Shown piece by piece: positions 24,603 to 27,827 of a stretch of 64,000 bases of DNA. Both the position numbers and the translations under genes were made by a program. Source of the DNA: a phage; assembly GCA_036930585.1 (NCBI GenBank), contig GCA_036930585.1_3066.1, one strand, 5' to 3'. How positions within the stretch are numbered: the first letter of the stretch is position 1; each line of letters opens with the position of its first letter. Under the pieces are notes generated by a model. That model saw only the letters and a list, made by a program, of their open reading frames with translations. It did not search any database and was not told where the DNA came from.

Positions 24603-25184
24603 CTAACCGAGCTTTTTAGTTAATTCATTCCAATGTTTTCTACACAAAGAAACATAAATTTCATCACCAATACAGATTTGATTACCTTCTTTAACTGGTG
24701 TTCCATCTTCCATTAATCGAGCTGTCATAATAGCTTTTTTACCACAATGACAAACTGCCTTTAGTTCAATAAGTTTATCTGCAATCGCCAAAAGTTCTTT
24801 AGAACCTTCAAATAATTTTCCAGCGAAATCAGTCCTTAGCCCATAAGCCATAACAGGAACATTATATGTATCAACAATTCGACTTAATTGATGCACCTGT
24901 TCAGTTTTTAAAAACTGAACTTCATCTACAAATACACAATGAATATCTTTTTGTGCTTCAGCCCATTTATAGAACTCAAAAATATCCATATCATCCGTAA
25001 TAATATTCGCTTCCTGCTTAATTCCAATGCGAGAAACGACTTCACAGACAGAATCGCGAGTATCAATAGCAGGCTTAAGAACTAATACACTCATCCCACG
25101 TTCTTTATAATTATGCGCAGCAGTCAAAAGAGAAGCAGATTTTCCAGCATTCATTGCTGCATAAGTAAAAATTAAACTCGCCAT
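24603..25184 (-). CDS. tk: thymidine kinase
   Basis: 193 aa; P-loop AMNAGKS; matches T4 Tk by recall. Confidence 0.95.
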
Positions 25185-25193
25185 ATCACCTTC

Positions 25194-25379
25194 TTAAAGC
25201 ATATTCACATAAGCTATTAATTCGTTTTCTTTCTTATCAAACCGATCAGCAAATTCTTCTTGCTGTTCGGGAGATAGCGGGCCGTATTCATCATAAAAGG
25301 TGTTTGCTTCTGTATGCTCATCTAGAAGTTCATGGATAAGCTCAAACAATTTATCTTTTTGTTCTTTACTCAGACTCAT
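25194..25379 (-). CDS. hypothetical acidic protein
   Basis: 61-aa ORF. Confidence 0.5.
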   Translation of the reverse strand: MSLSKEQKDKLFELIHELLDEHTEANTFYDEYGPLSPEQQEEFADRFDKKENELIAYVNML

Positions 25380-25549
25380 ATATTAATTTCCAGGAGTTTT
25401 AAAATAATTCGCTTTTGCTTAAATATTTCCATAGTTAAATGACCAGTATCTTTTTGACCGATTCCAATGGCAAAACCTTTATTGACAGCGAGTTCAATTA
25501 AATTATCAAGCTCACGTAACACTTCATACTGTAACTCAAAACTATTCAT
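25376..25549 (-). CDS. small hypothetical protein (57 aa)
   Basis: hand-translated; stop overlaps downstream ATG (ATGA). Confidence 0.35.
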   Translation of the reverse strand: MNSFELQYEVLRELDNLIELAVNKGFAIGIGQKDTGHLTMEIFKQKRIILKLLEINI

Positions 25550-25752
25550 TTCGGTTTACCTTCTTTAACGAAATCTGGATAAGGATAAAATCCCGAATAA
25601 AATCCTTCACCTTTATGATTGATGCATCCTTTATTAGAACAATAGCACCAATAATCGAAATCACAAGCCATTTCATCGTTGCATAAAGCAAAAACAACTG
25701 GCCATTTACACTTTTCACAATGGGCATTTTTAAGAATACTAGTTTGGCTCAT
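25546..25752 (-). CDS. Cys-rich small protein (putative Zn-binding)
   Basis: 8 Cys in 68 aa, including a CEKC pair. Confidence 0.45.
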   Translation of the reverse strand: MSQTSILKNAHCEKCKWPVVFALCNDEMACDFDYWCYCSNKGCINHKGEGFYSGFYPYPDFVKEGKPK

Positions 25753-25976
25753 AACCATGTAACCTTTAAGCAGTATTCTTCTACATGCTGTTTACGACCT
25801 TTCTTATCAATAAAGGTATATTCAACGAATGTTCCAATGTAGTCTTTATCTACATCATGCGGACTATTAATTGGACATTTAGTACGGCAAATGCGTTCCC
25901 ATTGACGAATAATTACTGCCTTATTCTTTGGGTCATATGGATGTGGATAATGTATATTCATAATAACGGTTCCCAA
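25749..25976 (-). CDS. hypothetical protein
   Basis: 75-aa ORF. Confidence 0.5.
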   Translation of the reverse strand: MGTVIMNIHYPHPYDPKNKAVIIRQWERICRTKCPINSPHDVDKDYIGTFVEYTFIDKKGRKQHVEEYCLKVTWL

Positions 25977-26425
25977 TCAACAATCACAATTTCTAATTTA
26001 GAGGAATATGTATCTAAAATCCCCTCAATAATATCCCAGTTCCCTTTACCTATGCCTGCACCAATCCTAGGCATATAGATTGTAGGTTTAATCAGTTTAT
26101 TTTCACCAAACTCATTTAATTCTAACATACAATTCATTAAAGCGGAATACTCAAAATTTGGCCCTGGTTGAAATTGAGTATAAAGGTTGAAGCAATACGC
26201 TTTATGAGTCCTAAAGTATTTTTCATAGACTGAGTAAGAACCGAGTTTAGTTACATCACCCCATTCAGTCTGTAATTTATCAGCTTCCAAAATTTTAGGG
26301 AAAGCTTTGGTTAATTGACCCGCTACGCCTGAACCCATAGTATGAAAACAATTGCATCCATGCGCAATATTTTTACCTTCAGCGAAAAGGGCGACAATAT
26401 CGCCCTTGATATATTTTACAATCAT
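25958..26425 (-). CDS. macro-domain-like protein (putative ADP-ribose binding/hydrolase)
   Basis: 155 aa; motif HGCNCFHTMGSGVAG resembles macro-domain N..GGGV signature. Confidence 0.55.
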   Translation of the reverse strand: MIVKYIKGDIVALFAEGKNIAHGCNCFHTMGSGVAGQLTKAFPKILEADKLQTEWGDVTKLGSYSVYEKYFRTHKAYCFNLYTQFQPGPNFEYSALMNCMLELNEFGENKLIKPTIYMPRIGAGIGKGNWDIIEGILDTYSSKLEIVIVDWEPLL

Positions 26426-26763
26426 CTAGTACTCAATCCTCGATTATAAGAATCTACCAAACGGTCAACCATTGAATGACAAGCGGCTTTATCTTTCTCC
26501 TCCGCAACTGAACATTCTAAGGTATTCCACTTTTTAGCATATCGTTTTAATAATGTATCGTTTTTGTATCTGCTTGATTTATCTCTTTCTCCGTCTTTAT
26601 ATGCATATATTAATTTCTGCGCAAATTCAGCTTGGCATTCTTTATTTTTCCCACAATAATCCGCGGCAGTACGGTTTACATACTCTCTAATTTCAGTATA
26701 TGATGTATCTGCTAACGCAGAAAATGAAATTAATCCTATACATAAAACCAAAATTTTAGTCAT
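26422..26763 (-). CDS. secreted hypothetical protein (vs position by synteny)
   Basis: 113 aa; signal peptide MTKILVLCIGLISFSALA. Confidence 0.5.
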   Translation of the reverse strand: MTKILVLCIGLISFSALADTSYTEIREYVNRTAADYCGKNKECQAEFAQKLIYAYKDGERDKSSRYKNDTLLKRYAKKWNTLECSVAEEKDKAACHSMVDRLVDSYNRGLSTR

Positions 26764-27301
26764 TTACTATTTCCAAAAGTTTATTATTTTTAAGGTAATT
26801 AGCCTTTTCTAGGACTTCAGAAGCATATTTAGAACCAGCTTTAACATTCCATCCCGAATTATAAGAGGATATTGCTTTTCTTATATCGCCCTTATGTATA
26901 TTTAACCAATAAGAAAGTTCAATGCACGCCCAGGAAGCTGAATTGGATCGTTTATTCAACATTCTTTTTATTTCAGCATCGGTCATATTATAACCAAGTT
27001 CCTTAACTCTTGCTCGCATAGTAGGCAAATAATTTTGGAACATTCCATAAGCGTGATGCTTTGGTTTAGATTTTAAATTAACTCCGCCAGAGCTTTCTTG
27101 CCATAAAATAGCAGCCATTATATGACCTAATCCGCTCTTGCGGATATTTTTGTGTGTTTTATATTTTCCATCCTTAGAAAATTGTTCCCCGAATTGATAC
27201 GCGTAACGCATGTTATCGAGTTGGACATTACTGAAAGTATGCTCGGAGCTATGTGCCATCATTGAAATGGCCAATAGACCAGCGAGTAGTGCTTTTCTCA
27301 T
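26756..27301 (-). CDS. secreted lytic transglycosylase-like protein (SLT domain)
   Basis: 181 aa; signal peptide; LWQESSGG catalytic-Glu motif. Confidence 0.6.
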   Translation of the reverse strand: MRKALLAGLLAISMMAHSSEHTFSNVQLDNMRYAYQFGEQFSKDGKYKTHKNIRKSGLGHIMAAILWQESSGGVNLKSKPKHHAYGMFQNYLPTMRARVKELGYNMTDAEIKRMLNKRSNSASWACIELSYWLNIHKGDIRKAISSYNSGWNVKAGSKYASEVLEKANYLKNNKLLEIVND

Positions 27302-27308
27302 GCTTACC

Positions 27309-27770
27309 TCATTGAGTTTTAATTACTGCTTTAGAAGCCTTTCCTGGTAAACGACGACTGTTGATAATTGCCATCCTACATTGAAGTGACGGGTCTTTGA
27401 ACTTCGCGTTAGGTTTACAAACTGTAAATCCAAGCCAAAGATTTCCATCTGTGATTTCTAAACGTCCAGGACGGTATTCAACCCCATCAATAAAATCCTC
27501 ATCAATGTCAGGACGCGGAGGCATACTCAGGAATTCATTAACTTCTAAAACATGGTCTTTTATTTTGTGGAATAATTCAAAAACATATGTCTCATCAATC
27601 TCCCGTTGAATTGCACGATCAAGAAGATGCTGAGAATATTTTAGATGAAACGATGAGACCCCTGCTGCTTTTGATGCCTCACGAATATCATTGTTAATTT
27701 GACGAAACTCCGACTCAAAGTGACGACGAAGCTTATTTCGACGGATAAAAACTTCTGTGTTGATAGTCAT
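27309..27770 (-). CDS. regB: site-specific RNA endonuclease RegB
   Basis: 153 aa; matches T4 RegB by recall. Confidence 0.9.
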   Translation of the reverse strand: MTINTEVFIRRNKLRRHFESEFRQINNDIREASKAAGVSSFHLKYSQHLLDRAIQREIDETYVFELFHKIKDHVLEVNEFLSMPPRPDIDEDFIDGVEYRPGRLEITDGNLWLGFTVCKPNAKFKDPSLQCRMAIINSRRLPGKASKAVIKTQ

Positions 27771-27797: not shown

Positions 27798-27827
27798 ATT
27801 ATACCACAGTCAAGAGGAAAAGTAAAC
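27798..27827 (-). promoter_or_regulatory. early-type promoter: GTTTAC, 18 bp, TATAAT with TGg extension
   Basis: upstream of regB. Confidence 0.6.

Follow-up and report, generated by a model that had tools for sequence, protein, structure and literature searches.

Tk.4/AdfM of a T4-like phage is a macrodomain with a predicted glutamine-type active site that probably removes DarT2-made ADP-ribose from DNA

Results

The tk.4 locus

The window analyzed here is a stretch of 64,000 nucleotides of phage DNA (assembly GCA_036930585.1, contig GCA_036930585.1_3066.1). A sequence-only reading had described a 155-aa ORF at 25958-26425, and this ORF, with the amino acid string quoted in that reading, is found there on the minus strand. 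The same-strand neighbors of this gene include four small ORFs (ORF list), and the features of the region are as follows:

24603-25184, minus strand: thymidine kinase (Pfam TK, 1.4e-60)
25194-25379, minus strand: 61-aa DUF7438 protein that resembles T4 Tk.2; replaces the T4 tk.2/tk.1 region
25376-25549, minus strand: 57-aa ORF of no family; replaces the T4 tk.2/tk.1 region
25546-25758, minus strand: 70-aa Phage_zn_bind protein; replaces the T4 tk.2/tk.1 region
25749-25961, minus strand: tk.3 (Pfam DUF7202), downstream of tk.4
25958..25961, minus strand: ATGA overlap of the tk.4 stop and the tk.3 ATG (sequence TTATTATGAATATACAT); same in T4
25958..26425, minus strand: tk.4/adfM coding sequence, with ATG start, for a 155-aa single-domain macrodomain protein; the ORF contains NIAHGCNCFHTMGSGVAGQLTKAF
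26422..26425, minus strand: ATGA overlap of the vs stop and the tk.4 start (ORF coordinates and sequence); same in T4
26422..26763, minus strand: vs, directly upstream of tk.4; no Pfam family
26756-27301, minus strand: vs.1, with an SLT lytic-transglycosylase domain
27309-27770, minus strand: RegB (Pfam REGB_T4, 2.2e-68)
27798..27826, minus (coding) strand: best sigma-70-like promoter match by consensus, TTTACT-17-TATAAT with TG, just upstream of regB

Since start and stop codons overlap at both the vs-tk.4 and the tk.4-tk.3 junctions, translation of the vs, tk.4, and tk.3 string is probably coupled. A regB-vs.1-vs-tk.4-tk.3 transcript could conceivably start at the promoter match at 27826-27798. 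As our promoter and terminator scan of the region gave no more matches than expected from shuffled sequence, we draw the operon structure solely from the codon overlaps and the T4 annotation.

A perfect 8-bp inverted repeat (AAGGGCGA-CAATA-TCGCCCTT) occupies positions 26387-26407, which is 18-38 nt into tk.4 as counted from the start of the coding sequence, and is the same in T4. On the plus (antisense) strand this repeat has a terminator-like score and a T-rich tail, and on the sense strand it would fold as a hairpin near the tk.4 start codon. Both vs and vs.1 have signal-peptide-like N termini, and the HIDEN-SEQ preprint reports that no other T4 gene was depleted as strongly as vs in minimal medium (bioRxiv 10.1101/2025.11.20.689424).

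By sequence and by synteny, with vs upstream and tk.3 downstream, the ORF is the orthologue of T4 tk.4. Its counterpart in the T4 reference genome (NP_049723) lies between vs and tk.3 and is identical in 155/155 residues; the aligned DNA differs by six substitutions, all silent for the Tk.4 protein. A tblastn search of the phage collection also matched, at 100%, the T4 tk-regB sequence X04567 from 1986, where the gene is called "ORF 60.5". The sequence-only reading missed that this is tk.4 of T4, a gene that has carried an A1pp/macro label for about 20 years.

Although T4 and the window phage share the tk.4 protein, its position and its overlaps, the window phage is HP3-like and has another cassette after tk.3. 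Escherichia phage HP3 and phages like it of the Tequatrovirus type share 99.5% identity with the 3.9 kb around tk.4. The T4 match ends just downstream of tk.3, where T4 has tk.2 and tk.1 and the window has three small ORFs (25194-25758, minus strand); this mosaic breakpoint coincides with the tk.3 stop codon, and tk.4 and tk.3 themselves are near-identical to T4. The RefSeq taxonomy line of HP3 (NC_041919.1), a 168-kb T4-like phage, reads "Rosemountvirus", which is probably a database quirk because of the T4-type gene content and this level of identity to the window.

Fold and class of the Tk.4 protein

At 17.5 kDa, Tk.4 is a stand-alone macrodomain, mildly acidic with a predicted pI of 5.9. 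Pfam Macro (PF01661) matches residues 22-132 with 27.7 bits against a curated gathering cut-off of 22 (E = 2.9e-6), and PHROG 335 matches with 1.3e-65. When Tk.4 was searched against PDB sequences, only macrodomains were returned, with BT1257 at 1.3e-9, Poa1p at 2.8e-6, SCO6735 at 3.3e-4, Thermus DarG at 5.2e-4, and TARG1 at 6e-4. Single-sequence AlphaFold2 was unusable (pLDDT 38), and only the model built with a 97-sequence alignment (pLDDT 96.2, pTM 0.91) was used; it predicts that Tk.4 has the three-layer α/β/α macro fold. The top Foldseek matches of this model in the PDB are TARG1, Poa1p, DarG, and BT1257. The macro-domain-like protein that the sequence-only reading had described is borne out by the Pfam search which it had proposed as a check, and a macro fold, whose absence from predictions it had named as grounds for rejection, is predicted.

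In both sequence and structure, Tk.4 is closer to BT1257, Poa1p, DarG, and TARG1 than to the MacroD, viral, or PARG types, and it belongs to the ALC1-like/TARG1-like (Poa1p-like) macrodomain class. Both predicted loops of the ADP-ribose cleft are present, with G33, G122, and G124 found in 246-247 of 247 relatives. The segments that would line the cleft are:

26321..26362, minus strand: predicted first ADP-ribose-binding loop, codons H22-A35, HGCNCFHTMGSGVA (hhalign and MAFFT)
26162..26188, minus strand: end of a core β-strand and the next loop, codons N80-G88, NLYTQFQPG (hhalign and MAFFT)
26036..26071, minus strand: predicted second, diphosphate-binding glycine-rich loop, codons P119-W130, PRIGAGIGKGNW (alignment)

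A glutamine at the position of the catalytic lysine

Aligned by hhalign with Mycobacterium tuberculosis (Mtb) DarG (probability 98.2%), the Tk.4 family places F79-N-L-Y-T-Q84 on I75-N-F-P-T-K80 and H22-G-C-N25-C on N19-T-V-N22-C, and MAFFT agrees on the position of Gln84 for TARG1, BT1257, SCO6735, and ALC1. The two codons concerned are:

26351-26353, minus strand: Asn25 codon, equivalent of DarG N22, SCO6735 N27, and PhiKZ AdfM N23
26174-26176, minus strand: Gln84 codon, at the position of DarG K80, TARG1 K84, and SCO6735 Gln85; checked in the DNA

The residues aligned with Tk.4 positions 84 and 25, respectively, are:

Tk.4: Gln84; Asn25
DarG: Lys80; Asn22
TARG1: Lys84; Ser35
PhiKZ gp104: Lys78; Asn23
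Poa1p: Ser; Asn26
BT1257: Gln; Asn
SCO6735: Gln85; Asn27
ALC1: Gln; Asp

Macrodomain sequences of Mtb and Thermus DarG, TARG1, Poa1p, BT1257, SCO6735, and ALC1 were taken from PDB alignments, and that of PhiKZ gp104 from the construct printed in PMC13309987. The numbering of SCO6735 was checked against V25, N27, L29, K34, Q85, G87, and K89 as given in PMC9411070.

The catalytic dyad of human TARG1/OARD1, K84/D125, thus corresponds to Gln84/Gly126 in Tk.4. Conservation was counted over 247 relatives of 120-600 aa from two database searches: Gln84, Tyr82, Gly122, and Gly124 are present in 247/247; Asn25, Gly33, and Pro119 in 246; Cys26 and Ala35 in 245; and His22 in 236. The active-site pattern of Tk.4 therefore appears to be of the Gln type seen in SCO6735 and not of the Lys type seen in DarG and TARG1. 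The same glutamine sets homologues of SCO6735 and ALC1 apart from those of TARG1 and DarG (PMC9411070).

SCO6735 of Streptomyces coelicolor and BT1257 of Bacteroides thetaiotaomicron are Gln-type, ALC1-like macrodomains that share both the Gln and the Asn with Tk.4 (PMC9411070). Tk.4 differs from both in having Thr-Gln in place of Gly-Gln and in the loop after Gln84, which is approximately seven residues shorter; the position of SCO6735 Lys34 is Ser in Tk.4 (position 32) and Ala or Ser across the Tk.4 family. In a neighbor-joining tree, the Tk.4 family forms a separate clade that is not nested with SCO6735 and BT1257, and its position with respect to Poa1p and to the Gln-type group is not firm.

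We considered and rejected the assignment of Tk.4 as a DarG, using Thermus aquaticus and Mtb DarG (PDB 5M31, 5M3E, and 5M3I) for comparison. Tk.4 scores 30.3 bits against an equivalog cut-off of 250 for NCBIfam NF048014, and it has 155 aa against the 338 positions of the DarG model. Gln84 replaces the catalytic Lys80, the C-terminal DarT-binding domain is missing, and the neighbors are vs and tk.3, with no adjacent darT gene.

Genetic evidence for a role against DarTG2

The assignment of tk.4 orthologues as A1pp/macro proteins was published in 2006 (PMC1524935). T4 without adfA and adfN (adfN encodes the NADAR protein that erases the guanine adducts made by DarT1) remains fully resistant to DarTG2, and one more factor had been predicted from this (PMC11825919). 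In November 2025, HIDEN-SEQ screening of a T4 transposon library on a DarTG2-expressing host gave tk.4 as the sole significant hit; a clean tk.4 knockout was sensitized to DarTG2, and the gene, which was required only when DarTG2 was present, was named adfM, for "anti-DarT factor Macrodomain" (bioRxiv 10.1101/2025.11.20.689424). Arguing by analogy, the same authors wrote that an enzymatic mechanism, with ADP-ribose taken off the DNA, "seems likely" (bioRxiv 10.1101/2025.11.20.689424). One suggestion of the sequence-only reading, that the protein counters a host ADP-ribosylating defense, agrees with these genetics, which were done on the identical T4 protein. Both the fold and the biological role of tk.4/adfM were thus on record before, and the gene itself is not a new discovery.

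These genetics also bear on whether Tk.4 might mainly be a small-molecule enzyme, such as an ADP-ribose-1′′-phosphate phosphatase, with the DarTG2 phenotype arising indirectly. Such an enzyme could dispose of side products of RNA repair or break down an immune signal derived from ADP-ribose; signal degradation has been argued for phage Macro domains (PMC9503650). NP_049723 is annotated "phosphatase; contains A1pp phosphatase motif", but this label is a transferred domain name and not a tested activity. Yeast Poa1p is a phosphatase that acts on Appr1p; of the positions probed in Poa1p mutant structures, Poa1p H23 is matched by Tk.4 H22, and T29 of Tk.4 is at the S30 position. However, Poa1p has Ser where Tk.4 has its invariant Gln, the neighborhood of tk.4 in T4-like genomes is not specific, and the sole reported tk.4 phenotype is specific to DarTG2, a DNA-modifying system. 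We regard a mainly small-molecule role as very unlikely.

Distribution of the Tk.4 family

By tblastn, Tk.4 is present in 2,751 of 50,697 phage records. These include T4-like phages whose hosts are many enterobacteria, Acinetobacter, Aeromonas, and Vibrio, and also rV5-like, Felix O1-like, Ackermannviridae-size, and Pseudomonas phages. An exhaustive HMMER scan gave 4,226 clusters (50% identity) at E ≤ 1e-3, of which 1,259 were found at E ≤ 1e-10.

Two homologues labeled as coming from bacterial MAGs (P0072 and P0118; "Bacilli bacterium" and "Culicoidibacterales") were examined in a search for cellular Tk.4-clade members with a neighboring DarT gene, and neither qualified. We rejected both as bacterial: they are on T4-like phage contigs with Rnl1, a Dda-like helicase, PNKP, and dCMP deaminase, and they are therefore uninformative on cellular origin. 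These homologues lie at 1927-2397 and 6001-6480 of contigs of approximately 40 kb, where a T4 spanin is also present; in the contig with the homologue at 1927-2397, the macro gene is two genes downstream of RNA ligase 1 and PNKP is a few genes further. A third candidate, P0124 (1,314 aa), was rejected as a relative because it consists of 23 copies of a 57-residue repeat and is a spurious low-complexity match; its 126 bits against Tk.4 come from 23 short matches to residues 31-61.

T4 encodes three ADP-ribosyltransferases, and the sequence-only reading had also suggested that the macro protein regulates or erases the marks that Alt, ModA, and ModB make. Such a protein would reverse or tune the attachment of ADP-ribose or RNA to host proteins. 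The residue that Alt and Mod modify is arginine, and this linkage is not reported as a substrate in the literature that we consulted on TARG1-like macrodomains. TARG1 and SCO6735 do also act on protein-linked ADP-ribose (PMC9411070), which is in favor of such a role, but tk.4 emerged only under DarTG2 challenge, and its homologues are spread over many phage groups. Our literature search revealed no link between tk.4 and Alt or Mod. We find no support for the suggestion, given the report that tk.4 is needed only with DarTG2, and we give it hardly any credence.

Discussion

We propose that tk.4/adfM encodes a stand-alone macrodomain that protects the phage from DarTG2, most likely by Gln-type hydrolysis of the thymine-ribose bond. 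DarT2 ADP-ribosylates thymidines in single-stranded DNA and thereby blocks phage DNA replication; Tk.4 would most likely take up the ADP-ribose group in its canonical macro cleft and cleave the thymine-ribose bond, restoring replicable DNA. Asn25 may hold the invariant Gln84, Gln84 may position the distal ribose, and a water molecule would carry out the chemistry. The role of Tk.4 is known from genetics on the identical protein in T4, not in the window phage, whereas its chemistry, namely the hydrolase activity, the substrate, and the catalytic role of Gln84, is what we infer. Our literature search found no biochemical assay of Tk.4.

We read Tk.4 as a Gln-type thymidine-ADP-ribose glycohydrolase because its residue pattern has a tested precedent in SCO6735. 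Without a Lys/Asp dyad, SCO6735 removes thymidine-linked ADP-ribose from DNA better than DarG or TARG1, and it can save E. coli cells from DarT; activity is lost in its Q85A mutant and almost lost in its N27S mutant (PMC9411070). For this enzyme it was proposed that Asn27 locks Gln85, that Gln85 positions the distal ribose, and that a backbone-held water does the chemistry (PMC9411070). Several features of Tk.4 count against the hydrolase reading. Tk.4 lacks the catalytic lysine of DarG and TARG1, it lacks two features of SCO6735 (a longer mobile loop with Lys89, and Lys34), it falls in its own clade in the tree, and its pI of 5.9 is acidic compared to 9.9 for SCO6735. An acidic pI, 5.05, is also found for PhiKZ AdfM, a macrodomain with activity on DNA.

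Could Tk.4 instead neutralize DarT2 mainly non-catalytically, by binding and inhibiting the toxin or by shielding ADP-ribosylated DNA? The missing catalytic Lys would fit such a role, and there are precedents: DarT is inhibited in vitro by catalytically dead forms of SCO6735 (Q85A), DarG (K80A), and TARG1 (K84A), with SCO6735 the strongest of them (PMC9411070), and AdfA and AdfB, the other anti-DarT factors of T-even phages and ICP1, appear to act by binding the toxin (PMC11825919). However, nothing in Tk.4 corresponds to the DarT-binding domain at the C terminus of DarG, and the pocket residues N25, Q84, Y82, G33, G122, and G124 are kept in 246-247 of the 247 relatives, from phages of many hosts. 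A pocket that is near-invariant is more in keeping with conserved chemistry on a small ligand than with recognition of a single, variable toxin. We therefore consider a mainly non-catalytic mechanism unlikely and favor hydrolysis of the thymine-ribose bond.

The name AdfM now stands for two macrodomain lineages. In 2026, PhiKZ gp104 of the chimalliviruses, an orphan macrodomain that counters DarTG2, was also named AdfM (PMC13309987). In vitro, gp104 takes DarT2-made ADP-ribose off an oligonucleotide, and this activity is reduced by N23A; N23 and K78 are its putative active-site residues, and the protein is imported into the phage nucleus (PMC13309987), a structure that PhiKZ has and T4 does not. 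Although gp104 and Tk.4 are both phage-encoded orphan macrodomains against DarTG2, gp104 keeps the DarG-type Lys (K78) where Tk.4 has Gln84. In the neighbor-joining tree, a clade with 100% bootstrap unites gp104 with both DarG macrodomains and leaves the Tk.4 family outside, and the HMM of the Tk.4 family scores BT1257 at 69 bits, TARG1 at 63, SCO6735 and Mtb DarG at 56 each, and gp104 at 36.8. These comparisons suggest that the two AdfM proteins represent different lineages within one macrodomain class, with gp104 being Lys-type and DarG-like and Tk.4 being Gln-type and largely phage-specific. What appears to be new here is this predicted Gln-for-Lys active site and the apparent non-orthology of Tk.4 with DarG and PhiKZ AdfM.

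We lean toward the view that T4-type AdfM is a third, independently recruited remover of thymidine-linked ADP-ribose, which would form a phage-specific clade marked by an invariant Thr-Gln and Asn25 and would lack the DNA-gripping loop of SCO6735. If so, T4 Tk.4 and PhiKZ gp104 would be convergent and not orthologous, and the Tk.4 clade (~4,200 clusters at 50% identity) could have broader or different substrates, such as uracil-ADP-ribose on RNA or protein-linked ADP-ribose, as for SCO6735 and TARG1. Tk.4 of T4 should not be modeled on the lysine chemistry of DarG, and Asn25 and Gln84 are the targets for mutagenesis. Finally, T-even phages would carry layered, linkage-specific erasers, with AdfN (NADAR) for the guanine adducts of DarT1 and AdfM (macro) for the thymine adducts of DarT2.
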